DNA from: a virus
Lineage: Duplodnaviria; Caudoviricetes
Virus record (IMG/VR): IMGVR_UViG_3300001686_000006
Span: 1 to 55,655 of that record
Strand: one strand, 5' to 3'
DNA length: 55,655 nucleotides
In this document: piece after piece, positions 27,351 through 42,655 of the stretch
Position numbering within the stretch: position 1 is the stretch's first letter
How the letters are laid out: each line of letters opens with the position of its first letter
Position numbers and translations under genes: made by a program
Notes under the pieces: model-generated
Database searches by the model: none
Seen by the model: only the letters and a program-made list of their open reading frames with translations
What the model was told of the DNA's origin: nothing

Positions 27351-27353
27351 AAC

Positions 27354-30295: not shown

Positions 30296-30379
30296 ATGAC
30301 CGACCTGCCGAAGACCGCCGTGATCACCATCAAGATCATCAACTTCATCGACTCGAAGTTCGACCGTTTCCGCAAGTAG
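30296..30379 (+). CDS. 27-aa cassette peptide (not in the ORF track)
   Basis: MTDLPKTAVITIKIINFIDSKFDRFRK; GC3-biased codons; between motif 30247 and terminator 30388. Confidence 0.65.
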   Translation: MTDLPKTAVITIKIINFIDSKFDRFRK

Positions 30380-30444
30380 TTTAATCGGAGAGTCCACACG
30401 GACTTTCTTTTTTTTTATTCGCGTATTTTTCACGTCCTATAATA

Positions 30445-30575
30445 GAAAGGAGATCGGACTAAACCCCGATTCCGAGATACGCATGTGCGGGAGAAACCCC
30501 CGCCCGGAGTGCAACCACAAGACAGGTTGCTAAAGATAGTTTGCCTTAGGCTATCGCCTCCTTTCCCTTTTTTTT
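30445..30575 (+). ncRNA. Multi-arm small RNA cassette 1
   Basis: Closing stem GAAAGGAG/CTCCTTTC with four internal hairpins and a U-tract; no SD-led ORF. Confidence 0.7.
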
Positions 30576-30630
30576 CGCGGATATTTCCGGGCCTATAATG
30601 AGAACAAAATCAAATTTTAGGAGACACTAA

Positions 30631-30789
30631 ATGGACCGTGAGCGAATCAAGCTCGAAGTTTATGTGGACCTCGACCCGGTTCCCGGTACCTTCCATTCCA
30701 AGGAAAGCGCCCAGAACGTGGTGAGGAATATACTGAACGGAGCTATTCCGCATTACAACCCAACTGTAAGTATCGCCCAAGACAAATAG
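30631..30789 (+). CDS. 52-aa cassette protein (not in the ORF track)
   Basis: AGGAG SD; MDRERIKLEVYVDLDPVPGTFHSKESAQ... Confidence 0.75.
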   Translation: MDRERIKLEVYVDLDPVPGTFHSKESAQNVVRNILNGAIPHYNPTVSIAQDK

Positions 30790-30885
30790 CTCTCAAGAGA
30801 GAAGCCCTAACCGGTTTCTCTTTTTTTTGTCTTCGCGGATTTTTCAGGGCATATAATGACAACCAAACCTATCCAGGAGAATCCC

Positions 30886-31047
30886 ATGACCAATCCCGCC
30901 GATGAAGCTATCTGCATGTTGATCGAAGATCTGACCCGTCGCGCCACTCGTCTCACCACGAATGCCGAAGAGCGTCAGAACTACATCAATCAGATCGCTC
31001 AGCTCCGTGCGTCGATGAATCCCCAGATCATCCAGCAGGTCCGGTAA
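30886..31047 (+). CDS. Cassette protein
   Basis: AGGAG SD; MTNPADEAICMLIEDL... Confidence 0.75.
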   Translation: MTNPADEAICMLIEDLTRRATRLTTNAEERQNYINQIAQLRASMNPQIIQQVR

Positions 31048-31138
31048 CAAAACGCGAGCCCTTCACGGGCTTTCGTTTTTTCACTATAGTCGCGGGAATT
31101 TCATGGTATGTAATGAACCCCTAACAAAGGAATCCAAC

Positions 31139-31297
31139 ATGACTTTCAAGCATGCTGCCAAGACCACCGCCTACGCCATCGGCATGTTCGTCTTCCCCGT
31201 CAAACCCAAGACGACGGAGAAACCGTTCGATATTGATGCGCATGCCGCGGCCGTTCAAGCCAGCTGGCACGAAGCCACCAAGGACTTTACCAAGTAG
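31139..31297 (+). CDS. Cassette protein
   Basis: AAGGA SD; MTFKHAAKTTAY... Confidence 0.7.
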   Translation: MTFKHAAKTTAYAIGMFVFPVKPKTTEKPFDIDAHAAAVQASWHEATKDFTK

Positions 31298-31403
31298 TTC
31301 AAAAGCCCAGAACCCCTAACACGGGTTCTAGCTTTTTTCCTGCAATTCGCGGGAATTTCATGGCCTGTAATAGAAGAAGATCACATCTATACAGGAGAAT
31401 CAC

Positions 31404-31598
31404 ATGACCATCCAGATCACCATCCCGAACCCGAAGACCGCCTACAACTACGCCAAGTATTTTCACCAGCTGAATCGCGAGAACAAGAAGTTCCGCAATC
31501 AGCTCCGTGAGGAGAAGCGCTACGAGAAGCGCATTCGTAAGTCCCAGGAGAAGATCGGTACCTACGTGCCCCCCACCTGCAAGACCATCTACGCCTAA
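31404..31598 (+). CDS. Basic cassette protein
   Basis: AGGAG SD, motif and terminator. Confidence 0.75.
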   Translation: MTIQITIPNPKTAYNYAKYFHQLNRENKKFRNQLREEKRYEKRIRKSQEKIGTYVPPTCKTIYA

Positions 31599-31686
31599 AG
31601 GCGAGCCCCCTAATACGGGGCTTTCCTTTTTTTCGCGGATATTTCATGGCCTGTAATGAGACCAAATCTATCCGGAAGGATTCATC

Positions 31687-31893
31687 ATGAAGGACGCCAT
31701 CAACGAGAAGGCCGTCTCCGTCAAGAACCATATCATTCACCACCGCGCCAAGTACGCTTCCGCAGCCACCCTCGTGGTCTGCTATAAGCTGCACCGAGTC
31801 TCGGTGAAGCAGTGGTATGCGTTCCTGGAGGAGAAGGGCATCGACCCGACGGAGTTCCTCCTGCCCGAACATTTCGCAGAGATGCACTCATAA
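31687..31893 (+). CDS. Cassette protein
   Basis: AAGGA SD, motif and terminator. Confidence 0.75.
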   Translation: MKDAINEKAVSVKNHIIHHRAKYASAATLVVCYKLHRVSVKQWYAFLEEKGIDPTEFLLPEHFAEMHS

Positions 31894-31953
31894 AGCTATG
31901 AGCCCTTAATTGGGCTCTAGTTTTTTTTTCAATACACAAGGAGCAGAATTAAA

Positions 31954-32397
31954 ATGAGACTTCTGGTTTCAGATCGAACGTCCCATCCTCGTCGTTGGCA
32001 TGTAAAGAAGCCGATGTCGAAAAAGACAGTGTGCGATCTACCTATGCTGGGTATGCGGGATCGAAAGCATGCTGATACGCCCATCCCGTGTGTCGAATGT
32101 TTCGCGTATATTTCACCCACTATAATGACACAACACTACCAAAGGAGTACCATGTCCACCGAGTCCTCCGAGCCCAAGCTCGAAAGCGCCCCGGAGCCCG
32201 AGACCGTCAAGCCGTCCAAGCTGAAGCGCATCAAGTCCGCCGCCACTGTTGCCGGAATCTACGCGATTCCCGTCACCATGGTGGGTGGTCTGATGCTGTT
32301 CAGCTACAAGACGAGCCAGATGGACCTCGAGGCTGCCAGGCTCAACTTCGAAGCCGCCAAACTCACCCGCCTCGCCGACGCTGCTACCCAGCAGTAG
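31954..32397 (+). CDS. Membrane protein (main start 32152) with an in-frame upstream His/Cys-rich extension from 31954
   Basis: AAGGAG SDs before both ATGs; motif copy 32102 lies inside the extension. Confidence 0.65.
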   Translation: MRLLVSDRTSHPRRWHVKKPMSKKTVCDLPMLGMRDRKHADTPIPCVECFAYISPTIMTQHYQRSTMSTESSEPKLESAPEPETVKPSKLKRIKSAATVAGIYAIPVTMVGGLMLFSYKTSQMDLEAARLNFEAAKLTRLADAATQQ

Positions 32398-32464
32398 TAG
32401 TCCAATGAGAATCCGTAACCCACGGGTTCTCATTTTTTCTGAGACCTTAAACAAGGAAAAAACT

Positions 32465-32707
32465 ATGGCTATGCCTAGAGGTTTGCGCCCTAACTCGAGG
32501 GCACGAGCCATCTATGAGTACATCAAGGCGAATCCGGGGTGTGCTCGTAAGGATATTTTGACTGTTCTTCCTTCGGATGTTGATCCAAACGTAGTCAGCA
32601 TTACTATCAATCGTCTTCGCTGTAATAATTTGATTGTCAAATCCGGCGGATACAAAGACGCTACTTGGCACATAGTCGAGACGTCATCGCAATCTGAGAC
32701 CCCCTGA
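32465..32707 (+). CDS. Winged-helix DNA-binding protein
   Basis: AIYEYIKANPGCARKDIL..VSITINRL..NLI..W pattern. Confidence 0.7.
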   Translation: MAMPRGLRPNSRARAIYEYIKANPGCARKDILTVLPSDVDPNVVSITINRLRCNNLIVKSGGYKDATWHIVETSSQSETP

Positions 32708-32721
32708 GCTAGGAGAGTAAC

Positions 32722-32934
32722 ATGGAAGATAGATATTTCATCGCCATCAAGGCACACAAGAATGTGATGCCGACGCACGACGAAGTTCTCGACGCCGTTC
32801 GCAATACGCTTGCTGAATTGGTGCGCAAGAACATTGAGCCCGTGGAGGCCCTGGCCAAGTCCCAGACCATGCGCGAAGCCGTTTCGACCTTCACGGTCGA
32901 GGTCGAGACTGATCTCTATTCTTCGAAGAAGTAA
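32722..32934 (+). CDS. Hypothetical protein
   Basis: TAGGAG SD. Confidence 0.7.
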   Translation: MEDRYFIAIKAHKNVMPTHDEVLDAVRNTLAELVRKNIEPVEALAKSQTMREAVSTFTVEVETDLYSSKK

Positions 32935-32959
32935 CCTGAGACCCCAAACTAGGAGAATC

Positions 32960-33172
32960 ATGAACCGCATCAAGTCAGTGATTTTTCAGGACTCCCGTCA
33001 CCGTTATGGCGACAAGGAGGCCATCGCCACCATGGACGACGGCTCCACGGAGCTGGTATTCCACTGGTTCAGCGACGAGCTGAGCTTCCGCGAGGAGGAG
33101 CTCATCGCCATGACCATCGAGCAGGCCCGCGACCTCAAGGAGGAACGCGACATCGCATATTTGCAGTCATGA
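32960..33172 (+). CDS. Hypothetical phage protein
   Basis: TAGGAG SD; FHWFSDELSF.EEELI.MT.EQA..LK..RDIAYLQS. Confidence 0.7.
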   Translation: MNRIKSVIFQDSRHRYGDKEAIATMDDGSTELVFHWFSDELSFREEELIAMTIEQARDLKEERDIAYLQS

Positions 33173-33672
33173 TCGACGGTCAACCGGCAGGAGTTACTAT
33201 GATCGCTTCCCGCTGTGCTCCCTTCGTGTTGCATGAATCCCACACGCTGAATGTCCTGCAAAGCCGACTACACGGGCTTGATCATTGGTTCCGGGTGTGG
33301 CAGAACGCTCAGTTGTTGAGCGGAAAGGGGACCAACGCCGATCTGGAAGTCGTGGGTCTGTATGCCTTGTTTCACGATTCCATGCGAGTGAACGATGGCC
33401 TGGATTCAGGCCATGGGCTCCGTGGATACAACTTGTGGGAGCGTATCAACCAACGGCTGGATCTGGGACGGTTTCTTTCCCAGCGACAGAACGAGCAGCT
33501 ATTCGAGGCTTGTGCCGAGCATAGCAATGGTCTTCGAAGTATGGATCCCACCATTGCCGTATGCTGGGATGCTGATCGATTGGATCTGCATCGTAAAGGG
33601 GTCTGGCCGGATGCTCGATTTATGAGCACGCAAGACAGCATTGATTTGACCATGAATCGGCTTCGGCCGTAA
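33169..33672 (+). CDS. HD-domain phosphohydrolase
   Basis: HGLDHWFRV, LFHDSMR, HG, EH and CWDADRLDL: full HD metal-ligand set. Confidence 0.85.
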   Translation: MIDGQPAGVTMIASRCAPFVLHESHTLNVLQSRLHGLDHWFRVWQNAQLLSGKGTNADLEVVGLYALFHDSMRVNDGLDSGHGLRGYNLWERINQRLDLGRFLSQRQNEQLFEACAEHSNGLRSMDPTIAVCWDADRLDLHRKGVWPDARFMSTQDSIDLTMNRLRP

Positions 33673-33698
33673 ACCCTATATTTGCAGGAGAAAAACTC

Positions 33699-33947
33699 AT
33701 GAAGAGAATCTTACTGAGTCTTACCGTGGGAATCATATCAACGTCAATTGCCTGGATCTATATCCTTCGGCATGCAATCGTGGACGGTCTCATCGAAAAG
33801 CTCGACACCATTGCTGCACGATTGTCCGAGCGTCGACGGAACCGACAGAACCTGGGGAACCTGGGATATTCTGGACAAGTCAGGTATCACAGCATGACTG
33901 CCATCCGCGAGCGACGTAGACAGGATAGTCACACGTCGAAGCGCTAA
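33699..33947 (+). CDS. Small membrane protein
   Basis: AGGAG SD; N-terminal hydrophobic helix. Confidence 0.65.
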   Translation: MKRILLSLTVGIISTSIAWIYILRHAIVDGLIEKLDTIAARLSERRRNRQNLGNLGYSGQVRYHSMTAIRERRRQDSHTSKR

Positions 33948-33965
33948 GCCAAACTAAGGAGAGTT

Positions 33966-34853
33966 ATGTCCAGCAGTGAGGAACGAGGCCGCGTGGCGAA
34001 GGATCGTACGCTGTCTCGCGAAAAGCAGATCGAGATGGCGAAGGCTCTGAAGGACAAAGGTCAGTCGAACGCGAGTATCGCCCACATCATGCAGCTCAAC
34101 GAAAGCAGTGTACGCGAGCTGCTCAAGCCGAAAGGCACCCAAGCTAAGGAGAGTAACGTGCAAATTGAAGGTCCCTATTCCATGAAGTCCGTGGACGGGC
34201 TGAAGACCCCCGTCTATATTTTTCTGCCCGGAGGAGAGGGCCAGCGTAAGCACATCGGCGAGGCCACGGTCAGCTCGGGTGAACCCGGCATGACCTTCGC
34301 CGTCGAATTGAACGAGCCGTACAAGGATATCGAGACGGCACATTTCGATGTTCCGATGCGGTATGTCTATTTGAACCGTCCCGATAAGCCCAGGATCAAC
34401 TGGCGCCACAACTGTCTCACCCCGGATATTCACGATGGCCGTCCGGGAGCGATTTGGAACATTCCGCTGGGATATGCGGTGTCGATTTTCTCGAAGGAGA
34501 GCCTGCAGGAGCTCGTTATCGAGCGCATCTATTCCGATGCCATGCAGTTCGTGGAGGCCTCCCCGTTTGTTCAGCGGGGCACCGACGTCTCCACGGAATA
34601 CACTCAGGAATGGGCCGAGCAGGTCAAGTACGAGGCCGAGAGGCGCTATCCGACTATCCTCCAGCACAAGGTCGGAGAGCTTTCCCGATATTACAAGACG
34701 CCAAGCTGGGAGCTCGAGCAGCAGGAGGCAATTAGCCGACTTAAGGAGAACAAACTCAACCCGTACTACGAGCCGCTGCACTCTCACGACACGATCAATC
34801 TGCTCTGCCGCATTCTCGGCGTCAGTGCTGAGATGAGCGTGGGGGGACAATAG
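33966..34853 (+). CDS. HTH-containing protein with probable internal start at GTG 34158
   Basis: AKALKDKGQSNASIAHIMQLNESSVRELLK HTH; second AAGGAGAG SD in frame. Confidence 0.65.
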   Translation: MSSSEERGRVAKDRTLSREKQIEMAKALKDKGQSNASIAHIMQLNESSVRELLKPKGTQAKESNVQIEGPYSMKSVDGLKTPVYIFLPGGEGQRKHIGEATVSSGEPGMTFAVELNEPYKDIETAHFDVPMRYVYLNRPDKPRINWRHNCLTPDIHDGRPGAIWNIPLGYAVSIFSKESLQELVIERIYSDAMQFVEASPFVQRGTDVSTEYTQEWAEQVKYEAERRYPTILQHKVGELSRYYKTPSWELEQQEAISRLKENKLNPYYEPLHSHDTINLLCRILGVSAEMSVGGQ

Positions 34854-35201
34854 ATGGATCAGGATAAACGAGCACTATTTATTCTGGCCACCCACACGCT
34901 CCGGTTCGCCACGGAGCATCCTTATGCCGCCACAGGGATATTTGGGGCAGCAGTGGGCTCCGCAGTCACCTACCGGGTGATGAAGTACGAAATGGTAAAC
35001 GAAGCGGCGACCAAGGTGTTCACCCCCAAAGTCTACAAGCTGGCGCTTTCCACAGAAGATCTGCATCGACTGTTGGCTGATCCGGCCTACGAGATGTGTT
35101 GGGACACACCAGATGCTTCGCTGATCATCACCTCAGAGAAAAAGGTGCCGCCGAAGGAATTGCCGATCATCCAAGTGATGGACAACGAACCCGAGGAGTG
35201 A
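34854..35201 (+). CDS. Hypothetical protein with hydrophobic segment
   Basis: Abuts both neighbours; GIFGAAVGSAVTY. Confidence 0.65.
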   Translation: MDQDKRALFILATHTLRFATEHPYAATGIFGAAVGSAVTYRVMKYEMVNEAATKVFTPKVYKLALSTEDLHRLLADPAYEMCWDTPDASLIITSEKKVPPKELPIIQVMDNEPEE

Positions 35202-35536
35202 TGAACAAAAAACAGCAAATTGTCGATCTGGTCAGAGCGCAACCGGGGATTTCCAGTCAAGATATTTCTAAAACGCTGGGAATTACTCGAGTTGAACTCA
35301 GCGCGCATACGTCTTATCTGCGCGATGTCAAAAACCAGATATACAACCAAGGTAAAAATGGTCGCTCGTTTCTGTGGTATCCGGTTACCGCAGAAACCGA
35401 AGATCAGATTCCGTTTATCCACGAAGCTCGAGCCATACTCAAAGATCTGCAACAAACGCCTGTAGCCCATCGAGAACGGCGTTTGGCTAAGCTGTTAAGC
35501 GAGCGAGAAGCTTCGCGGGAAAAACACATCCTATAA
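35201..35536 (+). CDS. Winged-helix DNA-binding protein
   Basis: GAGGAG SD; QIVDLVRAQPGISSQDISKTLGITRVELSAHTSYL. Confidence 0.75.
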   Translation: MNKKQQIVDLVRAQPGISSQDISKTLGITRVELSAHTSYLRDVKNQIYNQGKNGRSFLWYPVTAETEDQIPFIHEARAILKDLQQTPVAHRERRLAKLLSEREASREKHIL

Positions 35537-35614
35537 TAGAAGAGAACGGACTTGACGTCCAGATTCATACCACCGATCCCCGGTAGCAATGAATCTTCTC
35601 TTCTATATTTTTTT
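35536..35614 (+). ncRNA. Small RNA cassette 2 (three-way junction)
   Basis: ATAGAAGAGA/TCTCTTCTAT closing stem, GGAC/GTCC and AGATTCAT/ATGAATCT arms, U-tract. Confidence 0.65.
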
Positions 35615-35648
35615 GAGGAGACCTCAACCCAAACTATAAGGACCCATC

Positions 35649-35861
35649 ATGCTTACGACAACCAAGGAAGGCAACTCGAAACGAGTTCTCGAGATCGTCC
35701 TGGACGATCCGGGGGTTTCCGTCGATCATATTTACGATCGGCTGAACGGCGAAGTCACCCGGAAGCAGATCAGCAACTCTCTGCATTTTCTGCGTCGTAC
35801 CAACCAGATCGAGAACTTGGGCAGGCATGCCAAGGGTGCCAGCTGGTATCCCAAGCAGTAG
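35649..35861 (+). CDS. Winged-helix DNA-binding protein
   Basis: RVLEIVLDDPGVSVDHIYDRL..KQISNSLHFL..W. Confidence 0.7.
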   Translation: MLTTTKEGNSKRVLEIVLDDPGVSVDHIYDRLNGEVTRKQISNSLHFLRRTNQIENLGRHAKGASWYPKQ

Positions 35862-35894
35862 TAACGAGACCTCAACCCCAAACTAGGAGCAAGG

Positions 35895-36359
35895 ATGTTC
35901 GATAAGTTCAAAGCACGAATCGCCAAGTTGGAGGAGGACCACGACAACTTGCGTAAGCTCCATCAGCACGTGGATAGCAACAAGATCGCCTATGCCGCTG
36001 GTGCGAGTGGTCTAGGGTGTCTTATTCTTGGCGGAATGGCCGGATTGGCCTTGGGTCACGAAGTGGCAGTATCGCCAACGGCCAAGAATATGATGCTTCT
36101 TGGCTACAAGTCACCTCAGAGCATCATCCAGGAAACGGTTGTCAATGTGGCTGCCAAAGGATCTCGAGGGCACATCATCGTCGACGGGGCAGGAAATGTT
36201 GTAGGTCGAAGCCTTAGAGAAGCCGCGGCCAACGAGCACGTTCCTTACACCACAATGCGAAACGTGTGCAAGGGACTTCGCGCAACAGCAGGAAACGGTA
36301 AGACGTATACCGATCTCGGTGAGAATCTTAGCGAGCAGATCAAAGTCGGCCTCGCGTAG
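35895..36359 (+). CDS. Membrane protein with C-terminal NUMOD1-like HTH
   Basis: TM segment then RSLREAA....YTTMRNVCKG.....GKTY. Confidence 0.55.
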   Translation: MFDKFKARIAKLEEDHDNLRKLHQHVDSNKIAYAAGASGLGCLILGGMAGLALGHEVAVSPTAKNMMLLGYKSPQSIIQETVVNVAAKGSRGHIIVDGAGNVVGRSLREAAANEHVPYTTMRNVCKGLRATAGNGKTYTDLGENLSEQIKVGLA

Positions 36360-36376
36360 AAATCCCACCGTATAAT

Positions 36377-36484
36377 GAGACCCATCAGGCCGCGCCTAGC
36401 GCGCCGCCAACCGTTCTTGCGTCTAGCACGTATCCGGTTCTCCCGCGTTTCCGCACGTCGGAGTTGATGGGTCTCTTATTTTTT
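36377..36484 (+). ncRNA. Small RNA cassette 3
   Basis: GAGACCCATCA/TGATGGGTCTC 11-bp closing stem, internal hairpins, U-tract, no ORF. Confidence 0.7.
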
Positions 36485-36507
36485 CGCGGGAAAAACCCGC
36501 CGTATAA

Positions 36508-36581
36508 TGAGACCCATTTGAGCGCGGCTTTGCCGTACTCCTCGCTAGCGCGGCTTTGCCGTACTGGCGAGATGGGTCTCA
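36508..36581 (+). ncRNA. Small RNA cassette 4 with two identical hairpins
   Basis: TGAGACCCAT/ATGGGTCTCA stem enclosing the 19-nt direct repeat AGCGCGGCTTTGCCGTACT twice. Confidence 0.7.
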
Positions 36582-36666
36582 CTAAGAGAGCCTCCTATTA
36601 GTGCCTAACAGCCTAAGAGTTGAGGGTTCTCTCTTTTTTTCTCACCCCCAAACGCAAGGATGCACA

Positions 36667-37050
36667 ATGTTCAAGAACCTCATCGAGTATCGAGAGATGC
36701 AGCAACTGCGCAAGGATCATCTCAACCAGCAGAAGCGTCGTCAGGCTATCGTTTTGTTCGGCGCCCTGATGGGACTGCTGCTGGTCATGGCCGCCATCGA
36801 GGCAGTTACGGCCAAGGAGCCGGTCAAGCCCGCTACGGTGGCGGCACATGTCACAACGACCAAGCCTCAGCCCACCGACGACACCTCGACGTCGACGAGC
36901 ATTCAGCATGACCAAGAATGGTCGAGCAAGCAGGCGAAGTATTGCCTGAATGTGGGCCAGCAGGCGGGGCTCAAGGAGCCGGAGCTGACCAAGCAGTACG
37001 ACCGCTGTGTCGACCATACGGCCAACTGGCCGATGGAGAAGTTCGAGTAA
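36667..37050 (+). CDS. Single-pass membrane protein with extracellular Cys pair
   Basis: AAGGA SD; TM helix, Thr/Pro linker, YC...RC. Confidence 0.7.
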   Translation: MFKNLIEYREMQQLRKDHLNQQKRRQAIVLFGALMGLLLVMAAIEAVTAKEPVKPATVAAHVTTTKPQPTDDTSTSTSIQHDQEWSSKQAKYCLNVGQQAGLKEPELTKQYDRCVDHTANWPMEKFE

Positions 37051-37060
37051 GGAGCATAAC

Positions 37061-37246
37061 ATGCACGAGAAGATCGAAAAGCTCAAGCCCATCGCCGGAT
37101 ACGTTCATAGACGCCGTGGTCGTTTCTCGGCGTTCGGTACATTTGTTGTGTTATATCCGTGGCTGAGACGCCCTCGACATGATTGGACAGAGTTCGAGAA
37201 GGACTTCCGCATGTACGACAGGATCCATGCCAAAACCCAAACGTAG
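37061..37246 (+). CDS. Hypothetical protein
   Basis: AAGGAG SD; MHEKIEKLK... Confidence 0.65.
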   Translation: MHEKIEKLKPIAGYVHRRRGRFSAFGTFVVLYPWLRRPRHDWTEFEKDFRMYDRIHAKTQT

Positions 37247-37282
37247 TACCTGTAAACCTATACCCAACAGAAAGGATCCGCC

Positions 37283-37441
37283 ATGCGGACCAAGAAGTCG
37301 AAGCGCCTCTATACCGTCGTGTTGGAGTACGCGAACGGTGTGACCCGAACTGTCACGGTCCGGGCGGTCACTCGGGATATCGCCGAACGGCGGGCTCTCA
37401 AATTCAATCGAGGGGCCAAGCGGGTGAGGCATGATGTCTAG
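37283..37441 (+). CDS. 52-aa basic protein (not in the ORF track)
   Basis: AAGGA SD; MRTKKSKRLYTVVLEYANGVTRTVTVRAVTRDIAERRALK... Confidence 0.65.
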   Translation: MRTKKSKRLYTVVLEYANGVTRTVTVRAVTRDIAERRALKFNRGAKRVRHDV

Positions 37442-37622
37442 TAAGCCTAATAAGGTGCTCGAGCATGAGATCAGCCAGGATGAGGCTTACCAGAGGAGTG
37501 GACATCCCATTATTCTTCCGATGAATTCGGTAGTTCGAGGGCTGATGCCTGGATATTACGAACTTCAGCTCCGTGAGAAGAAGCCAAGAATCACCTCCAA
37601 GGAAGTGAAGCGCGATGCGTGA
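37434..37622 (+). CDS. Hypothetical protein
   Basis: Overlap-coupled ORF with GAGG SD. Confidence 0.55.
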   Translation: MSSKPNKVLEHEISQDEAYQRSGHPIILPMNSVVRGLMPGYYELQLREKKPRITSKEVKRDA

Positions 37623-37785
37623 AATCTTCCGTGACAATCAGGCATATTCTCGCAGTCTGTACATCGGTGGCCCGCCGCAGAAGCGCTACGGCTTCTTTTC
37701 GTTCATGTTCGACATCGTGATGACGTTTGTCACCGGGGGCTTCTGGCTGATCTGGATATTTGCCCGGGAGATGCGTCGGCGATGA
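37615..37785 (+). CDS. 56-aa membrane protein (not in the ORF track)
   Basis: ...YGFFSFMFDIVMTFVTGGFWLIWIFAREMRRR. Confidence 0.7.
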   Translation: MREIFRDNQAYSRSLYIGGPPQKRYGFFSFMFDIVMTFVTGGFWLIWIFAREMRRR

Positions 37786-37877
37786 GAGTGCTACTGATCA
37801 AGTCAGCCTACTGGGCCGGGTTCTGGATGTCATATTTCCAGACCCGGCGCCGTCTCCGTGAGCCGAGATATTACTGA
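37782..37877 (+). CDS. 31-aa peptide (not in the ORF track)
   Basis: ATGA and TGATG overlaps on both sides; MRVLLIKSAYWAGFWMSYFQTRRRLREPRYY. Confidence 0.55.
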   Translation: MRVLLIKSAYWAGFWMSYFQTRRRLREPRYY

Positions 37878-38152
37878 TGACCAAAGACTGGCAGTTTATC
37901 CTTCTCTACGGCGTAATCATTCTACCCCTCTGGCGTTGGTTTTCTATCTGGGATTACAAACGCATGCTCAAACGTCGGGAAACCAAGTTCCTCAAGATGG
38001 TCAAGGTGCAATTTCCTGATGCTTCTTATGTGACGTTCACGGCGATCGAGACCAGTGACAAACAGGCCATGACTAATCTGGTTCAGCAACTAGGAGCATA
38101 TGAATCAGAGCGAGCACAATTAGACGATTGGCCATGGCCTCGAGTGGATTGA
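37877..38152 (+). CDS. Membrane protein
   Basis: N-terminal TM helix. Confidence 0.65.
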   Translation: MTKDWQFILLYGVIILPLWRWFSIWDYKRMLKRRETKFLKMVKVQFPDASYVTFTAIETSDKQAMTNLVQQLGAYESERAQLDDWPWPRVD

Positions 38153-38187
38153 GCGGAAAAATTCGCGGGAAAAACACGTTATATAAT

Positions 38188-38244
38188 AGAAGGGAGGAAC
38201 ATAGCCAACTAACCTAGCAAGTTAGCTTGGCTCTCTCTTTTTTT
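38188..38244 (+). ncRNA. Small RNA cassette 5 (bulged hairpin)
   Basis: AAGGGAG/CTCTCTT, AGCCAA/TTGGCT, CTAAC/GTTAG, U-tract, directly after motif 38163. Confidence 0.55.
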
Positions 38245-38275
38245 CCGCCCACCAAGTTCGAGAAAGGCCAGGAGA

Positions 38276-39076
38276 GTGCAGTTTCTCAACGATGTAAAGC
38301 AGAAGGCCACGGTGTTCGCAGAAGCGAACGCGGCTGCTCTGCTCACCGCGGGAGGTGTTGTCGGCACAGTCGCCACCGCAATCCTCACCGGACGCGCCGG
38401 ATTCAAGGCGCACGAAATCCTTCAGACTCTGGAGATGGAAGCAAAGCTCAAGGCGAATAGCTTCGAAAACGACGGCGGAACCGAAGTGGTTTCGCCGACC
38501 ACGTTCGAGAAGTTCGTCGCTGTCGGACCGCAGTTCATTCCGCCGGTCATCGTCGGCGGAGCCACGATCGCCAGTATCGTCATGGCCAATCGAGTGTCGG
38601 CTCAGAAGGCTGCCGCTTTGGCTGCGGCTTACGGGCTGGCCGAGCGCAATCTCTCCGAGTACAAGGAGAAGATCAGCGAGAAGCTCACCGGTCCGAAGAA
38701 GCAGCAACTCGAGGAAGAGCTCTCACAGGATCGAGTCAACCGGACCGACGGTTACCAGAACATCGTCATCGTGGAAGGCGAAGTTCTGTGTTTCGACGAG
38801 CCCACGGGTCGATATTTCCGCAGCACGATGGAGAAGATTCGTAAGGCGGTGAACACCACCAACGCGGAGATCCTCCACTCCGGCTGGGCCAATGCGACCT
38901 TCTTCTACCATGAGCTCGGGCTTACCGCCACGTCATGGACTGACGACATGGGCTGGAACACCGATCAGCTCTTGGATTTGAAGTACGATACGGTCAGATC
39001 GCCGGATGATCGGCCGTGCCTGTCCATCGACTTCACCGTCCTGCCGAAGCCGGATTACGTCCCAAAGCACTTTTAG
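38276..39076 (+). CDS. Conserved phage protein (DUF6353-like), paralogue of 43939..44886
   Basis: N-terminal hydrophobic helices, AALAAAY...Y.EK, GRYF and MGW motifs. Confidence 0.7.
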   Translation: MQFLNDVKQKATVFAEANAAALLTAGGVVGTVATAILTGRAGFKAHEILQTLEMEAKLKANSFENDGGTEVVSPTTFEKFVAVGPQFIPPVIVGGATIASIVMANRVSAQKAAALAAAYGLAERNLSEYKEKISEKLTGPKKQQLEEELSQDRVNRTDGYQNIVIVEGEVLCFDEPTGRYFRSTMEKIRKAVNTTNAEILHSGWANATFFYHELGLTATSWTDDMGWNTDQLLDLKYDTVRSPDDRPCLSIDFTVLPKPDYVPKHF

Positions 39077-39381
39077 ACCGACTCGAAGCACCCGAGCTCC
39101 GGTTGATGCCCTGGTATATTCAGCAGCACCGCCAGTGGCATCACCGGGGGAGTCGGTCTGATGGTCCTCGGACCAAACCACCGATAGCGAGCAGCATGGA
39201 AGTGGCGCAAGGGTATCCAACTAACAGAAACCCACGTCGGTGGTTGAACAAGTTAAAGTCAGAGAAGAAGATAAAGTCGAAGCAGTATATACTCAACGAT
39301 CAATGGGGCGATCCGTCCTTGATTCTTGATCGGTCTTTCTTTCTCGACGAATGAACAGCAATCAAATTAGGAGAGTCCAAA

Positions 39382-39477
39382 ATGAAGATGCCCTTTCGCC
39401 GTCGTAAGCAGACCCGGAAGCAGCGTCTGGCCGAAGCTTTCGTCCGGATGATGGAGAACTGGTCGAAGCAGCGGTAA
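39382..39477 (+). CDS. 31-aa basic peptide (not in the ORF track)
   Basis: TAGGAGAG SD; MKMPFRRRKQTRKQRLAEAFVRMMENWSKQR. Confidence 0.6.
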   Translation: MKMPFRRRKQTRKQRLAEAFVRMMENWSKQR

Positions 39478-39520
39478 GCCTAAATTTCGCACTATCCCCA
39501 AACAAGGAGAGTAACCCAAG

Positions 39521-39772
39521 ATGCTGGGTTTTACCAGCCTGAATCCTGCAGACGGATTCACCACGCCGCTCGGTGAACGAGAGGCTGTGCGTATCATCAT
39601 CACCGAACACGGACGGAGGGTGTTCAAGCAGAGCCTGCTTGGCAGTGCGGTGTTCGGCGTGGGACTCATGTTCACCCTCAACCGCTTCGGCAGCACGAAG
39701 TTGCGCAGCGAGGCGGCAGAAACCGTGGCCAAGGTGGCCGAGGCCGTGGAGCCCAGCGGAGTGACACGATGA
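39521..39772 (+). CDS. Membrane protein
   Basis: AAGGAG SD; central hydrophobic helix. Confidence 0.65.
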   Translation: MLGFTSLNPADGFTTPLGEREAVRIIITEHGRRVFKQSLLGSAVFGVGLMFTLNRFGSTKLRSEAAETVAKVAEAVEPSGVTR

Positions 39773-39933
39773 CCAAGTTCCTGCTTGGCGTCGCCGTGGG
39801 CTATGTGTTCAGCGACATGATCGATGAGCTCATCACTCGGATTCCCGACACCATGAAGGATTCCGAGCCAACCACACCGTCGCCGATGCCTCCGCCGACA
39901 TCAACCACGACCGCCAGTGAGGAGACTCTGTAA
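39769..39933 (+). CDS. 54-aa protein (not in the ORF track)
   Basis: ATGA overlap; MTKFLLGVAVGYVFSDMIDE..., Pro/Thr tail. Confidence 0.6.
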   Translation: MTKFLLGVAVGYVFSDMIDELITRIPDTMKDSEPTTPSPMPPPTSTTTASEETL

Positions 39934-40019
39934 TGAAGTTCATGCTCATTCTCCTTACTGCGTTTCTCGGTGTCGCCGCAGCTGCTTGGGCGATCGAGAA
40001 AGCGTTCATCAAGTCGTAA
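39933..40019 (+). CDS. 28-aa membrane peptide (not in the ORF track)
   Basis: GAGGAG SD, TAATG overlap; MKFMLILLTAFLGVAAAAWAIEKAFIKS. Confidence 0.6.
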   Translation: MKFMLILLTAFLGVAAAAWAIEKAFIKS

Positions 40020-40143
40020 ATAGGCGTTAAAGGACTCCCCAGGGATCGTATGTCCTGGGGCTAGGGTGGGGGTAGCTTCCTACAATTTGGAACGCGCCCC
40101 CACCCGCCGGTCTTTCCATTTCACAACCAGGAGAACTTCAGCC

Positions 40144-40725
40144 TTGCTGAAAAAGACGATTGTCTACGAGAACCCATTCACCCAGCAAATGGTGAGTGAG
40201 GAACATTACTTTCATATCTCCAAGGCTGATCTCATCGAGATGCAGATGGAGAATCTGAATGAGCCCGAGGTAATCAACCCGCAGACCGGGGCCAAGCTCG
40301 AGGGCTACCCGGCCATGCTGCAACGCATCGTCAACGACAAGGACGGCAAGGAGATCCTGGTCGTCGTCAAGGACATGGTGCGCCGAGCCTACGGCAAGAA
40401 ATCTGGAGACCGGTTTCTCCGCAGCCCAGAAATCTGGGAGGAGTTCATCTCCAGCGAAGCCTGGTCTCAGCTATATTTCGAATTATGCACCGACGCCGGT
40501 GCCCAAGCCGATTTCATGAACGGCATATTCCCCAGAGACATGCTGGAAGAAGCTAACAAACTTGCCGCCGCACAGGCGCAAACAAACGGAGACGTGTCTA
40601 CGCCCGAACAGGATGTTCCGGCTGACGTTTCCACACCCAGAGTCCTCACTAATCAAGAAGTGGCTGAGATGGACTCTGATGAACTTAAGTCCGGGCTGGC
40701 CACCGGGCGCTACAAGCTTTCGTAG
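40144..40725 (+). CDS. Conserved phage protein (possibly chaperone-like)
   Basis: AGGAG SD then TTG; LKKTIVY..EEHYFHISKADLIEM..AYGKKS..F..S. Confidence 0.65.
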   Translation: MLKKTIVYENPFTQQMVSEEHYFHISKADLIEMQMENLNEPEVINPQTGAKLEGYPAMLQRIVNDKDGKEILVVVKDMVRRAYGKKSGDRFLRSPEIWEEFISSEAWSQLYFELCTDAGAQADFMNGIFPRDMLEEANKLAAAQAQTNGDVSTPEQDVPADVSTPRVLTNQEVAEMDSDELKSGLATGRYKLS

Positions 40726-40908
40726 GACTGATTTTAGATCGCGCGAAGTAAATATCGGATACTAAAGAAGCAAAAAAAGCCGCGTCCATAGTAAGTGAAT
40801 CATGGAGTAGGCGAGATTCACCTTTGACTACCGGAGAGACAACCGGGAAAGAAGAACTCCACCGACGCGATCACATAATATTATAGCAAACCCAAGCTAG
40901 GAGAGTAT

Positions 40909-41160
40909 ATGCCAGACGAAGTTTCTACCACCACCACCGAAGCTGTCAAGAAGATGAGCGACGGGACCGTGAAGATCTCGGTCGAGAAATACAACGAGTT
41001 GCTCGAGAAGGCGGCCATCAAGCCTCCGGTGATCAACCGCACCATCGTCCACAAGACAGCCGAAATGCTCACTCAAGAGCATCAGGCGTGGGGAGCCACC
41101 TTCATGGGGGCGGGTGTGGCGCTCTTCGTCATCGGAGCATTCCGCTACAAATTCGCCTAG
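40909..41160 (+). CDS. C-terminally anchored membrane protein
   Basis: TAGGAG SD; C-terminal TM helix. Confidence 0.7.
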   Translation: MPDEVSTTTTEAVKKMSDGTVKISVEKYNELLEKAAIKPPVINRTIVHKTAEMLTQEHQAWGATFMGAGVALFVIGAFRYKFA

Positions 41161-41164
41161 ATCT

Positions 41165-41836
41165 TCTAGAGAGATGAGATTGCAGCAGTGTGGATCCTGG
41201 ACTTTATAACGCCAGCTTTGGGGTTATAAAGGGGTGGGAGCGGTCTAATAAACCGCCGCGACCAGATTGACCCCGCGCACTGCTCTCATATTCTCGAGAG
41301 GGATCAACGCTGTCTACTGGTGAAAAGCAGCATTAAGTTGGCTACAACATCCACTCCGGACGGCCGGTACACGGGTGAGATAGCCAGTAGACAGCACGAT
41401 CCGAATCAAATGCGAGCTCTCTTAGAGCTTATATTAGGAGGCCTATCTGGATCCGCAGTACGTGACCGTCTAACGACAGGCCAGTCGATCCGGAGATGGA
41501 GAAGTCTGATTACGGGGTAGGTCCGCATAGGACTAGAAGTTGGAAGGGGTAGATCAGACATATTAGTACAAGCGTCCTAGCGGACGGGTGAGGTCTCAAC
41601 ACTGGGGGTACTGCGGTGGCGCATACCTTAAACGATCACCTAAGCATACAAGATCTGGAGTATGCTGAAATGGCGCCCAGTGCTCGCTATCGCTAGCACT
41701 CATTTCTCCTAAAGGGTGTGATTTTAACTCAGGGGTACCAGCGGCTAATGCGCTCTGGTATTAAACGACAGCAAATGGCACGGTTTGGCAAGTTTTCTTG
41801 CCGAAATGCCCCACCGTCCGTACGCGCCCCTGACTT
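41165..41836 (+). ncRNA. Large structured non-coding region, about 670 nt (strand assumed)
   Basis: No SD-led ORF; more than ten stems including GCTGTCTACTGG/CCAGTAGACAGC and CCGCAGTAC/GTACTGCGG. Confidence 0.6.
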
Positions 41837-41899
41837 AATTTCGCGGGAATTTCATTGCCTATAATGAGAAGAAACCATATCCCTTTAAGGAGTATTTCA

Positions 41900-42181
41900 A
41901 TGACCACACCCGAGTTTACCGCTCGCAACGTCGCGAAATTCCTCGCGAAGGCAGTCGTCGCCACCAAGACGGCTCGTCTGACCGCCGATGTCGTGGCTGA
42001 CCACACCAACTACGAGAAGGACGACACCGTCGTCGATCTCGGTAGCCAGGTGGTCGGCTGGTACATCAGCGCGAAGCTCGAGCCCGTCACGGACAAGATC
42101 GTCGACACCACCGCAGACTTCGTCACCGAGCAGCGCAACAAGCGCCAGGCCAGGAGAGACGCCAAGAAGAAGGACCAGTAA
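41900..42181 (+). CDS. Cassette protein
   Basis: Motif 41841, AAGGAG SD, terminator 42189. Confidence 0.75.
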   Translation: MTTPEFTARNVAKFLAKAVVATKTARLTADVVADHTNYEKDDTVVDLGSQVVGWYISAKLEPVTDKIVDTTADFVTEQRNKRQARRDAKKKDQ

Positions 42182-42244
42182 ATCTCAGAAAGAGGATCCC
42201 TAACCCGGATTCTCTTTTTTTCTTAATTAGCGAAAGGATTCGCA

Positions 42245-42655
42245 ATGTCAGATCTGACCCAGCTTGTTGTCGGTCCGGGCGAGCCGGATAACGCTGAGCT
42301 CGGAGAGATTCTCGAACGATATCGAATAAATGCCGAGCTGTCACGCCGTGCCGCCGCAGCTCAGCTTGAGCTAAGTTCTGAGTACGTTCGTTTGGTCGAA
42401 CGAGGAAAGCGCACATTTACTCTCGGAATGATGCCGAAGGTACTGAGCATCTATGACATAACTTACGAACTTGAACTCGATCGAATTGTATTTGATCGTT
42501 ACTCCGTTCAATTCTCGAGTCGCATCCGAGAAGCTCGATACAAGGATATCGAACGTCCTAATCGAGACGAACGTCTTGGCCAAATAGTACGACTCTTGGC
42601 TATCACAGATGAGGAAACTCTGGACCAAATTTACCGAAGATTACTTCGCGGCTAA
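42245..42655 (+). CDS. XRE-family HTH regulator
   Basis: LGEILERYRINAELSRRAAAAQLELSSEYVRLVERGKR. Confidence 0.85.
   Translation: MSDLTQLVVGPGEPDNAELGEILERYRINAELSRRAAAAQLELSSEYVRLVERGKRTFTLGMMPKVLSIYDITYELELDRIVFDRYSVQFSSRIREARYKDIERPNRDERLGQIVRLLAITDEETLDQIYRRLLRG

Follow-up and report, generated by a model that had tools for sequence, protein, structure and literature searches.

Clamped, promoter-driven hairpin cassettes in a soil actinophage and related phages: candidate genes for stable small RNAs

What do two adjacent promoter-to-terminator units produce when they lie between the genes for two small membrane proteins of a phage? The units occupy positions 36352-36640 on the + strand of the window, which is the whole 55,655-nt stretch of DNA analysed here (Caudoviricetes; IMG/VR record IMGVR_UViG_3300001686_000006); we describe the phage as a soil actinophage. 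Both units most likely make short, tightly folded non-coding RNAs, as judged from their sequences and predicted folds.

Architecture of the two tandem units

The locus comprises the following features.

35895..36359, + strand: upstream gene, 154 aa, with an N-terminal coil, one membrane helix and a C-terminal NUMOD-like helix-turn-helix
36352..36376, + strand: promoter motif of unit 1, TCGCG-N14-TATAAT; repeat family D1; PWM 30.3 bits; regex match
36377..36484, + strand: predicted RNA of unit 1, an 11-bp clamp around three hairpins; inverted repeat I6
36484..36508, + strand: promoter motif of unit 2, TCGCGG-N13-TATAAT; PWM 44.4 bits, the top score of the window; regex match
36509..36580, + strand: clamped body of unit 2, a 9-bp clamp and two hairpins; inverted repeat I4, direct repeat D3
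36584..36640, + strand: separate terminator-like hairpin and T7, 3' of the unit 2 body, from the fold; direct repeat D2
36667..37050, + strand: downstream gene, 127 aa, with one membrane helix; preceded by a ribosome-binding site

The elements are tightly packed. The stop codon of the upstream gene overlaps the unit 1 promoter, and the first T of the unit 2 promoter motif is the final T of the unit 1 tail. The 18-mer CCGTATAATGAGACCCAT is identical at 36368-36385 and 36500-36517; with up to three mismatches it has two matches in the window against 0.05 expected by chance, and none of 100 shuffles reaches two. In unit 1, GAGACCCATCA (36377-36387) is complementary at 11/11 positions to TGATGGGTCTC (36465-36475), which is followed by TTATTTTTT, and the T-rich tail runs from 36476 to 36484. 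The enclosed region carries the 9-nt repeat GCGCCTAGC/GCGTCTAGC, and CUAG occurs in two of its three hairpin loops. In unit 2, GAGACCCAT (36509-36517) forms 9/9 pairs with ATGGGTCTC (36572-36580) around hairpin 1 (36520-36540) and hairpin 2 (core 36546-36566, outer stem 36541-36571). An automatic detector of clamp and T tail found unit 1 and did not count unit 2, in which T7 comes after the separate hairpin 3' of the clamped body. The terminator hairpin resembles the end of unit 1: its 3' half (36617-36641) and the unit 1 sequence made up of 3' arm and tail (36461-36485) share 84% identity. The preliminary description of two motif-driven neighbours with the same closing stem is thus borne out by the identical 18-mer, by the ATGGGTCTC complement and by clamps of 11 and 9 pairs.

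Folded from the G after TATAAT, unit 1 reaches -48.4 kcal/mol (z -6.16), which none of 200 shuffles equals. The clamped body of unit 2 reaches -44.8 kcal/mol (z -6.84), and unit 2 including the terminator hairpin and T7, folded from the G after TATAAT, -63.3 kcal/mol (z -6.83). The only ORFs within 36352-36640 have 30 and 45 codons, both without a ribosome-binding site, and one begins within TATAAT; neither unit has a ribosome-binding site with an ORF of at least 30 codons within 60 nt of its promoter. A 30-codon ORF as the product of unit 1, with its ATG overlapping TATAAT, was rejected: it lacks a ribosome-binding site, it is not conserved, and the ATG is present in every promoter copy. A simple promoter/terminator scan listed neither unit because they have no -35 match and have large loops. 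GenBank phage DNA gave no match to the locus (401 nt, distant mode) or to 15 kb (near mode).

The repeated hairpin of unit 2 is the 19-mer AGCGCGGCTTTGCCGTACT, present exactly at 36521 and 36547 (26-nt period) as had been described, with one more site in the window at 21908 (three mismatches; chance expectation 0.01). In each copy, a UUU loop is closed by five base pairs, GCGGC/GCCGU, and the fold also includes a C.A mismatch and, further out, 3 to 8 more pairs; an earlier rendering as GCGGC-TTT-GCCGT had captured the stem and loop and omitted the mismatch and the outer pairs. Across the window, the viral contigs and the species genomes searched, the 19-mer hairpin is unique to this phage. An 18-mer of it has two matches in viral contigs, both in unrelated sequence and with no promoter motif. 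Its 17-mer core, sought exactly in 185,579 species genomes, occurs at at least 120 loci in many phyla with one match each; among the matches listed no locus has two copies, so none lies in an array. These scattered matches are read as chance, given their distribution. Among the exact matches listed, none to the hairpin was CRISPR-array-like or taxon-restricted.

Promoter motif and family of clamped cassettes

The promoters of both units belong to a motif of the phage itself. The consensus TCGCR-N13-TATAAT-GAGAcCC occurs at 21 sites on the + strand of the window, between 27.7 and 42.7 kb, and 16 of these have a start codon within 22-36 nt (one belonging to a 27-codon ORF). The motif is also present in Gordonia DJ, Rhodococcus CC and Arthrobacter AM/AU/AW phages, with eight sites in Gordonia phage Kerry, and in ReqiPoco6, Heisenberger, Teacup and Linda. 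The 15-mer TATAATGAGACCCAT was found at 69 loci in related viral contigs, where 34 distinct 45-nt sites carry the upstream block; at many related sites the two stand 5' of a ribosome-binding site and ATG. On this pattern of conservation, the promoter is judged to be real, common to the phage group and mostly a driver of protein genes.

For Vardy and Conley, Gordonia phages of cluster DJ, an intergenic 43-50-bp TATAAT motif has been reported in five copies in the central small-gene region and interpreted as a sigma-70 -10 box (PMC9671010, PMC10868162). The published motif is very likely the promoter motif studied here, because Kerry, of the same cluster, carries the latter. In the available text of those two reports the motif is described only 5' of genes, with no mention of non-coding, clamped and terminated units or of a complement to the post-TATAAT bases. 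A report on a Streptomyces phage promoter (PMC13722658), as far as its available text goes, concerns another phage and another motif.

Cassettes were defined by TCGCR-N12-15-TATAAT followed by RRRA, by pairing of at least the first nine post-TATAAT bases with the last bases before a T-tract, and by the absence of a nearby coding sequence (CDS). Units 1 and 2 have the promoter, the clamp and no CDS. The window holds five cassettes, and others occur in many related phages. The three sister cassettes of the window are listed here.

35513..35613, + strand: cassette C, with promoter, clamp AGAAGAGAA/TTCTCTTCT, two hairpins and ATATTTTTTT; z -5.22
30419..30574, + strand: cassette D, with promoter, clamp GAAAGGAG/CTCCTTTC, four hairpins and a T8 tail; z -4.21
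38163..38246, + strand: cassette E, with promoter, short clamp AGAAGGGAG/CTCTCTTTT (two G.U pairs), one hairpin and a T-tract

Cassette E is the weakest of the five (fold z -2.70, equalled by 2 of 200 shuffles). Cassette C resembles, by eye, positions 2407-2470 of the related locus L199 (loci in related contigs carry L numbers) in its start sequence, its first hairpin and its position 5' of the same gene family. Cassette D has a terminator immediately 5' and the next promoter immediately 3'; as a separate observation, its 3' arm has a 10-nt antisense match to several ribosome-binding sites.

Of the 40 promoter sites that no CDS follows, 26 show an end-to-end clamp with a T tail, compared with 2 of the 136 that drive a CDS. 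The arm sequences vary (GAGACCCAT, GAGAGAGAA, GAGAAGACA, GAGAACCAC, AGAAGAGAA), and each 3' arm follows its 5' arm. Because the arms differ and covary between cassettes, the clamp is an architecture and not a fixed scaffold sequence, and the GAGACCCAT of the units is the consensus start region of the phage promoter and therefore not a special RNA scaffold. The idea of a constant scaffold with a variable payload consequently survives as a constant architecture with variable payloads in related phages, while the scaffold sequence itself turns out to be promoter start region; likewise, a search of those phages for the scaffold with other payloads recovers clamped cassettes whose clamp sequences differ and covary. 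A MITE-like element with terminal inverted repeats was ruled out, because the arms vary among cassettes and always begin at the promoter.

Direct repeats of at least 14 nt occur in 11 of 27 cassettes, compared with 0 of 540 shuffles and 0 of 136 CDS pieces, and Pherobrine provides an additional case of a tandem direct repeat: behind its gene 57 stand two cassettes, of which the second holds a 21-nt module twice. Tandem duplicated hairpins are a recurrent trait of the family; where hairpins repeat, the module measures 17-32 nt and is present in 2-3 copies. Payloads diverge quickly between phages. T-arm-like hairpins are found in cassettes of Kerry, L042 and Teacup, with none in units 1 and 2, and in ReqiPoco6 the same promoter and clamp drive an annotated 'tRNA-OTHER'. 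These tRNA-like payloads in other cassettes therefore mark the cassette as a general expression unit for stable RNAs. ARAGORN reported no tRNA or tmRNA in the window and only one ordinary tRNA-Lys, in L041, among eight loci (L042, L074 Kerry, L009, L048, L057, L047, L013, L041), a scan that left out Teacup, Linda and ReqiPoco6.

The upstream gene belongs to a family that adjoins cassettes in the window, L199, L042, L057, L048, L009, L013, Kerry, Pherobrine, Odesza, ReqiPepy6 (L201) and L203. The window protein itself has no Pfam or PHROG match; its relatives give sub-threshold Pfam I-HmuI_NUMOD-like matches (E 3.4e-4 and 0.024), and the family HMM also matches HNH/homing endonucleases weakly. 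Viral contigs that are syntenic by this flanking protein comprise one relative (L199), and the L057 protein alone as bait yields four loci. The downstream protein has no Pfam or PHROG match and no syntenic relative among the viral contigs.

L199 carries the promoter behind its homologue of the upstream gene, and then the clamp GAGACCCATG, a hairpin present twice and T7. The window and L199 hairpins, four in all, align without gaps: 31 of 32 cells are paired, both partners have changed in 4 of 8 pairs, and the A on the 3' side of the mismatch is invariant; these unit 2 pair counts are drawn from two phages, the window and L199. By this alignment, the L199 locus is a positional orthologue that keeps the clamp and two-hairpin architecture through compensatory changes. 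The cassette shared by Kerry, Pherobrine, Odesza and ReqiPepy6 shows compensatory changes at 13 of 32 pairs, 8 of them among the 12 clamp pairs. The comparison demonstrates the architecture, its recurrence and the covariation of clamp and hairpins.

Product of the units and competing explanations

The reading that we prefer, held tentatively and at slightly less than an even chance, is that the units are stable, end-clamped small RNAs that would present repeated protein-binding hairpins, with at least five such genes in the phage and a lineage-wide family beyond it. A copy of TCGCR-N13-TATAAT, the conserved promoter of the phage itself, stands at the start of each unit, and we infer discrete RNAs whose 5' end would lie at, or beside, the purine after TATAAT. 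The first 9-15 bases of the RNA would pair with its last bases; this end-to-end clamp and its U-tract would double as the terminator, for which unit 2 would use its extra terminator hairpin instead. The product would be compact and about 70-130 nt long, its two ends protected and its clamp enclosing a payload that evolves fast. Unit 2 and about 40% of the family have as their payload 2-3 tandem copies of one small hairpin, predicted as a short loop on a stem in which one base is mismatched. Such hairpins may be ligands of a host or phage RNA-binding protein. As the preliminary description did, we infer a decoy or sponge function: the RNAs might act as abundant multivalent binders early in infection.

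The position of the RNA start matters here. On a sigma-70-type reading of the -10 box, transcription would start about 7-8 nt downstream of TATAAT, so that most of the 5' arm would be absent from the RNA. Most gene-driving copies have a pyrimidine-to-A step 7-8 nt downstream of TATAAT. Folded from 36384, unit 1 has a z of -1.53 and its advantage over shuffles is lost. Clamps that begin at the first base after TATAAT are found immediately behind another terminator in cassette D, in unit 2 and in L009, L048, L057 and Pherobrine; this placement means that upstream read-through cannot explain the clamps of those cassettes. Five soil metatranscriptomes contain 5-10% of the sampled words of this phage. 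Over 27000-43000, four soil metatranscriptomes provide low-depth contig pieces of coding parts only, the deepest of which start at 41876 and 41883, 10 and 17 nt past the G after TATAAT of the promoter at 41841. None of the contigs of these four covers 36352-36640, contigs being unable to reveal small RNAs, ends or strand.

A bolder proposal, which we regard as rather unlikely, is that a YonO-like single-subunit RNA polymerase reads the promoter and starts at the purine after TATAAT, so that the clamp cassettes would launch anti-host stable RNAs. The host sigma factor would not be used, and the phage supercluster would have an early small-RNA programme of its own. A changing set of RNAs, including tandem hairpin arrays and tRNA-like modules, would disarm RNA-binding defence or housekeeping proteins of the host. 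Units 1 and 2 would then be two anti-host RNAs of a family unannotated in hundreds of sequenced actinophages. The supercluster's YonO-like protein is about 900 aa long (gp92 in Kerry), and the ReqiPoco6 record notes its similarity to a Lactococcus phage 1706 protein with a structural annotation.

The units might instead be cis-acting leaders or attenuators, in which a structured leader and terminator between a strong promoter and a gene turn that gene down or make it conditional; we consider this unlikely. Unit 2 and its terminator hairpin would control 36667-37050, with read-through set at the hairpin pair by a factor or an alternative fold. The gene at 36667 has a ribosome-binding site, lies 27 nt past the T7 tract and has no promoter motif of its own, with no promoter site between 36509 and 36667, so that transcription must pass the terminators of both units to reach it. 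Genes without their own promoter follow three of the five window cassettes, unit 2 included, which suits a cis-regulatory leader too: the arrangement recurs 3' of cassettes C and E, where the next starts are at 35650 and 38276, respectively, 3' of Kerry cassette B, and in Teacup and Linda. The gene of the membrane-plus-NUMOD type often stands behind a cassette without its own promoter (L199, L013, L057, L042, L009), and L041 has this promoter with a GAGACCCAT/ATGTGGTCTC clamp that leads directly, without a T-tract in between, to a ribosome-binding site and ATG. However, the attenuator layout of promoter, structured leader, terminator and promoterless gene is found in unit 2 and not in unit 1. 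Unit 1, cassette D and the arrays in L009, L048, L057 and Pherobrine have another promoter directly 3' and therefore cannot be leaders. Attenuation, moreover, needs just a plain hairpin, not conserved multi-hairpin payloads or 2-3 copies of a module, and the minimum-energy and centroid folds, the folds that were inspected, show no evident antiterminator pairing or known effector-binding element.

At the level of DNA, the imperfect palindromes could bind the adjacent membrane-anchored NUMOD-like protein or a replication factor, with the promoters opening or activating the site in a manner comparable to a transcription-activated origin or a membrane-attachment site. The neighbouring gene family has a DNA-binding-type domain and adjoins cassettes in many phages, and T7 has two tandem promoters at its origin. 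The stems are nearly all Watson-Crick, with no + strand G.U excess (46 of 754 pairs on the + strand and 67 of 752 on the - strand). A strand test for selection on RNA gave no + strand signal, the reverse complement folding slightly better in 16 of 25 cassettes, and compensatory changes are equally expected of a symmetric dimer site. Yet sites bound on DNA alone have no need of the full promoter, end-to-end clamp and T-tract found in every unit. The conserved A.A or C.A stem mismatch breaks the palindrome alike in several phages; being non-palindromic, it fits RNA recognition better than a DNA palindrome, as far as the alignments indicate. In homing endonucleases, NUMOD modules act as monomers on asymmetric DNA and so would not call for hairpin-forming sites. 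The phages are related, so gene adjacency may be inherited gene order, and the tRNA-like payloads in cassettes of the same build point to RNA products. We regard the DNA-level explanation as decidedly improbable.

Base-pairing regulators or processed guides, in which the clamped transcripts or hairpins cut from them would pair with host or phage mRNAs, are very improbable. The units share the promoter-to-terminator layout of bacterial small RNAs, and their payloads diverge as fast as target-matching sequences might. Against this, the five window cassettes, compared in sense and antisense with the remainder of the window, match it no better than shuffles do, almost all payload bases are held in stems, and 2-3 copies of one hairpin are atypical of seed-pairing RNAs.

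A mimic of a known defence RNA, whether a CRISPR repeat (RNA anti-CRISPR) or a type III antitoxin repeat, is scarcely credible: the succession of promoter, tandem direct repeats and terminator is that of a type III antitoxin array, and the early region around the units holds many small genes without a known function, but the single 17-mer matches in at least 120 genomes include none in an array among those listed, both viral-contig matches lie in unrelated sequence, no toxin-like gene adjoins, and CRISPR repeats and known antitoxin repeats are longer than the 19-21-nt module with its 26-nt period.

Relation to known RNAs and significance

The preliminary description had also placed the units beside three known classes of RNA, and none of the three was supported as a specific model. 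With type III antitoxins (ToxI) the second unit shares a promoter, tandem direct repeats (here two 19-mers with a 26-nt period) and a terminator; type III antitoxin repeats are protein ligands, and phages carry copies of them as decoys (pseudo-antitoxins). In contrast, the cassettes have 2-3 copies of simple hairpins inside a 5'-3' clamp, there is no sequence similarity, and no gene for an endoribonuclease toxin adjoins or lies downstream. RNA anti-CRISPRs (Racr) are likewise small structured phage RNAs with their own promoter, for which titration of a defence protein is proposed, whereas the hairpin found here has no match to a repeat array among the matches listed and its module is shorter than CRISPR repeats. 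CsrB and RsmZ carry several copies of a hairpin ligand on one RNA, but the loops here are UUU, UAU or other sequences, with UUU in both hairpins of unit 2 and no GGA; no actinobacterial member of the CsrB/RsmZ partner protein family is known. Rfam 15 gave no match at E up to 10 in 35800-37200, and no match reached the gathering score in the window and six related loci. The put elements of HK022, which form two stem-loops right after an early promoter, offer a further likeness; they have no clamp or terminator of their own and show no sequence or Rfam similarity to the cassettes.

By its distribution in the genomes compared, the family is unannotated and spans a large group of Gordonia, Rhodococcus and Arthrobacter phages; we found no description of the cassettes in the literature, supplements aside. 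The DJ, CC and AM/AU/AW phages and their Streptomyces relatives number hundreds of sequenced, cultured phages from teaching collections, whose central regions contain, by annotation, nothing but protein genes and gaps. At least one published CDS, gp065 of ReqiPepy6, lies over a cassette. If the cassettes are real RNA genes, each genome of this phage group would hold several unannotated stable RNAs. A clamp that begins right after TATAAT bears on which polymerase reads the promoter and on where transcription starts. The repeated-hairpin payloads would offer a natural set of RNA ligands with which to fish for protein partners, possibly including actinobacterial defence proteins.

Two tandem units and the promoter that opens them

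About 300 non-coding bases separate gene 35895-36359 from gene 36667-37050 and hold two tandem promoter-to-terminator units (window 36352-36640; promoters at 36352-36376 and 36484-36508). Every element named in the preliminary description lies between these genes. The 18-mer CCGTATAATGAGACCCAT occurs twice in the window against 0.05 expected, and none of 100 shuffles contains two copies; each copy is matched downstream by a complement, perfect over 11 of 11 bases for unit 1 and over 9 of 9 for unit 2. Unit 2 also holds two exact copies of the 19-mer AGCGCGGCTTTGCCGTACT at a spacing of 26 nt. With the G directly behind TATAAT taken as the first base, unit 1 folds into an 11-bp end-to-end stem around three hairpins, and TTATTTTTT comes next (z -6.16). 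In unit 2 a 9-bp stem encloses two hairpins, and a further, separate hairpin with T7 lies behind it (z -6.83).

The 15-mer TATAATGAGACCCAT is found in 69 stretches among viral contigs and is preceded by an upstream block, TCGCR-N13, at 34 distinct sites, most of which have GAAAGGA and ATG 10-25 nt downstream. Because the block is shared and most sites lead into GAAAGGA and ATG, the motif around TATAATGAGACCCAT is, judged from its sequence context, a promoter of a phage lineage. The closing-stem arm GAGACCCAT is thus not the dedicated RNA scaffold it was previously taken for: it represents the promoter's consensus start region and stands mostly ahead of genes. Window 27756-42690 has 21 copies of TCGCR-N13-TATAAT-RAGA on the + strand, and the ten best window sites of a weight matrix are all on this strand. 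A start codon follows the promoter by 22-36 nt at 16 of the 21 sites (one opening a 27-codon ORF) and is missing at five. The gene units of this region mostly look monocistronic, the T-tract of a gene terminator merging with the TCGC block that begins the promoter behind it. The motif is present at eight sites in Gordonia phage Kerry and also in ReqiPoco6, Heisenberger, Teacup and Linda. Two genome announcements describe an intergenic 43-50-bp motif with TATAAT in DJ phages and interpret it as a sigma-70 -10 box (PMC9671010, PMC10868162); the excerpts of these papers used here make no mention of non-coding followers.

The window, an IMG/VR virus record of 55,655 bases, encodes a siphovirus-like gene set (terminase, portal, head protease and a 1950-aa tape measure), and every gene is on the + strand. 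The primase-polymerase shares 60% identity with the counterparts in cluster DJ Gordonia phages and Rhodococcus phage ReqiPoco6. Relatives place helicase, VRR-Nuc and Cas4 genes after the polymerase gene. No homologues of these three were found in the scanned right-end ORFs, and a full YonO-like polymerase gene is absent from the window; since relatives have them, the contig is probably without its right end. Window 2709-4838 encodes a 709-aa protein with DUF7211 repeats, the N-terminus of which gives weak LigT / 2'-5' RNA ligase-type phosphoesterase matches (E 0.004-0.008, below threshold).

A family of clamped cassettes

Like the two units, other promoter copies are followed by non-coding sequence with an end-to-end clamp, an arrangement we call a cassette; the hairpins enclosed by the clamp are its payload. 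Across the window and related loci we counted 176 distinct promoter-like sites, scoring a clamp where the initial post-TATAAT bases (offset 0-2) are complementary to the bases immediately ahead of a T-rich tail.

Clamp and T tail at the promoter-like sites
Sites leading into an ORF of at least 30 codons with a ribosome-binding site: 136 sites, clamp and T tail in 2
Sites without such an ORF: 40 sites, clamp and T tail in 26

Unit 2 is counted among the 14 clamp-negative non-coding sites because its T-tract comes after a second hairpin, and one of the 26 clamped sites, in L008, probably does not represent a genuine promoter. The window holds five cassettes:

30419-30574, + strand, cassette D
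35513-35613, + strand, cassette C
unit 1 (promoter 36352-36376), + strand
unit 2 (promoter 36484-36508), + strand
38163-38246, + strand, cassette E

The earlier proposal of a constant-scaffold, variable-payload family thus holds for the family and its payloads, in the window and in relatives, but not for a fixed clamp sequence. Clamp arms vary by cassette, the 3' arm tracking the 5' arm (GAGAGAGAA/TTCTCTCTC, GAGAAGACA/TGTCTTCTC, GAGAACCAC/GTGGTTCTC, AGAAGAGAA/TTCTCTTCT). One cassette is conserved across Kerry, Pherobrine, Odesza and ReqiPepy6; of its 32 predicted pairs, 13 have changed in a compensatory way, and eight of these belong to the 12 clamp pairs.

Three observations concern individual cassettes. 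The 3' arm of cassette D, GCCTCCTTTCC, has 10-nt complementarity to several phage ribosome-binding sites. In ReqiPepy6 (48430-48547) the annotated CDS gp065 overlies cassette B, which is kept in Kerry, Pherobrine and Odesza; the CDS call is probably spurious, as ReqiPoco6 has no homologue of it. The Arthrobacter AU/AW phages Teacup (locus L197, 10970-11053) and Linda (locus L198, 10476-10557) carry orthologous cassettes with conserved loops CGAATGTTG and GAAGTTCGTYGCTCCC and one compensated stem (CCTGTAG/CTACAGG vs CCTCAGG/CCTGAGG).

The 54-kb viral contig L199 has a homologue of gene 35895-36359, followed by the promoter and a cassette in which GAGACCCATG/CATGGGTCTC form the clamp, GAGCCTTTATGAGGCAC is present twice and T7 ends the unit. 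The hairpins of this cassette are built like those of unit 2: three to four pairs lie outside a one-base mismatch that has A on its 3' side, and inside it are five pairs and a U-rich loop of three bases. Aligned gap-free, the four hairpins have 31 of 32 cells paired and both-sided change in four of eight pairs, a comparison of two phages only; slid-alignment controls reach at most 53% paired. A second L199 cassette, ahead of the gene homologue, looks homologous to cassette C, with one first-hairpin pair, by eye, changed on both sides.

The product of gene 35895-36359 combines one membrane helix with a C-terminal helix-turn-helix motif of the NUMOD/homing-endonuclease DNA-binding type. The HMM of its family also gives weak HNH endonuclease matches, relatives give Pfam I-HmuI_NUMOD-like matches below threshold, and some GenBank records label the homologue 'HNH endonuclease' or 'membrane protein'; the family is without a nuclease domain. 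Homologues (among them L199 2501-2923, L057 2817-3209, Kerry gp54 and Pherobrine gp57) adjoin cassettes in every relative examined: L199, L042, L057, L048, L009 and L013, and likewise Kerry, Pherobrine, Odesza, ReqiPepy6 and L203. As these phages are related, the adjacency may be inherited gene order.

Gene 36667-37050 has no promoter motif, and the same is true of the gene behind cassette C and of the one behind cassette E; their transcription must cross cassette terminators. A leader or attenuator role for cassettes preceding promoter-less genes is one of the two main rival readings, and we regard it as unlikely. The gene directly behind cassette E (38276-39076), without its own promoter motif, forms a DUF6353 paralogue pair with 43939-44886.

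Transcription start and polymerase

If TATAAT is the -10 box of a host sigma factor, transcription would start 7-8 nt downstream, where gene-driving promoter copies have a pyrimidine run and then A. The 5' arm would then lie largely outside the RNA and unit 1 would lose its fold advantage: its fold from 36384 onward does not surpass those of shuffled sequences (z -1.53). Against such a start, the clamp covaries from the very first post-TATAAT positions (GAGA/TCTC, AGAA/TTCT, variable positions 5-9). The same covariation is seen where a cassette lies directly behind another terminator, a position that prevents upstream read-through from supplying the 5' arm.

In RNA libraries with phage pieces, no contig crosses the locus of the two units, which in contig data speaks neither for nor against its transcription. 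The only signal near a promoter, weak and indirect, comes from the deepest soil metatranscriptome contigs (window 41876-42178, depth 12 and 22), whose first bases lie 10-17 nt beyond the G next to TATAAT (promoter 41841).

The phage group's own polymerase-like protein could possibly reconcile clamp and start site. The supercluster encodes a ~900-aa protein with YonO/crAss-type polymerase motifs, as described in a preprint (10.1101/842583). Kerry gp92 matches PHROG 4291 (E = 0); the ReqiPoco6 annotation likens the protein to a structural protein of Lactococcus phage 1706. In the window, the first ~60 residues of ORF 33966-34853 (295 aa) match profile positions 53-124 of PHROG 4291, an N-terminal part of the family without the catalytic part.

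Payloads and the nature of the predicted RNAs

Payload content varies widely between cassettes, and some payloads are tRNA-like:

ReqiPoco6 (locus L195) 14588-14690, promoter and clamp around an annotated 'tRNA-OTHER'
Kerry (locus L074) 5651-5770, T-arm-like hairpin GTAGGTGAAAATCCTAC
locus L042 1261-1391, - strand, T-arm-like hairpin GTAGGTTCGAATCCTAC
Teacup (locus L197) 10876-11060, T-arm-like hairpin

The 'tRNA-OTHER' has a 6-nt anticodon loop and a leader paired with its trailer. The cassettes of L042 and Kerry are not recognised as tRNA by ARAGORN; the window contains no tRNA, Rfam gave no match, and the 38 kb of Heisenberger examined hold no cassette.

Duplicated hairpins, first seen in unit 2, are borne out as a family feature. 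Direct repeats of at least 14 nt occur in 11 of 27 cassettes (25 from the automatic clamp set; unit 2 and the cassette of L199 were added by hand), in 0 of 540 shuffles and in 0 of 136 length-matched coding pieces. Repeat cassettes hold two or three hairpin copies, and several phages (L009, L048, L057) carry two or three such cassettes in tandem; Pherobrine, with a 21-nt module twice, is an additional case. Modules of L199, L009, L042 and L057 share a GGAGNC...GNCACC stem with an A.A mismatch. Eight matches to this pattern fall within 2.5 kb of cassette sequence and 46 within 1.64 Mb of other sequence, an enrichment that is partly circular because the pattern derives from the same cassettes.

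Two specific models suggested earlier are not supported. Among the matches listed, the hairpin core occurs in species genomes singly and scattered, never in an array, which speaks against a CRISPR-repeat mimic; its two matches in viral contigs lie within unrelated sequence. A likeness to type III toxin-antitoxin systems finds no toxin-like gene beside the units. Antisense targets within the phage do not exceed shuffle level. G.U pairs show no + strand excess in cassettes, and in 16 of 25 the reverse complement has a slightly more stable fold. The other main rival reading, sites acting as DNA, for the neighbouring protein or for replication, seems improbable.

In the literature, supplements aside, the promoter motif is described, and we met no account of the cassettes. 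Small RNAs and RNA decoys of phages are familiar as kinds, while the cassette architecture, the tandem-hairpin payloads and the spread of the architecture across a large group of cultured phages appear undescribed. The combination of consensus promoter, covarying end-to-end clamp and T-tract, with payload folds conserved through compensatory changes and tRNA-like payloads in sister cassettes, is most economically described as genes for stable small RNAs, a reading drawn from comparative sequence. Each cassette would encode an RNA with its ends clamped together, the repeated mismatched hairpins would best be read as multivalent protein ligands, and the RNAs might, we tentatively suggest, act as decoys.
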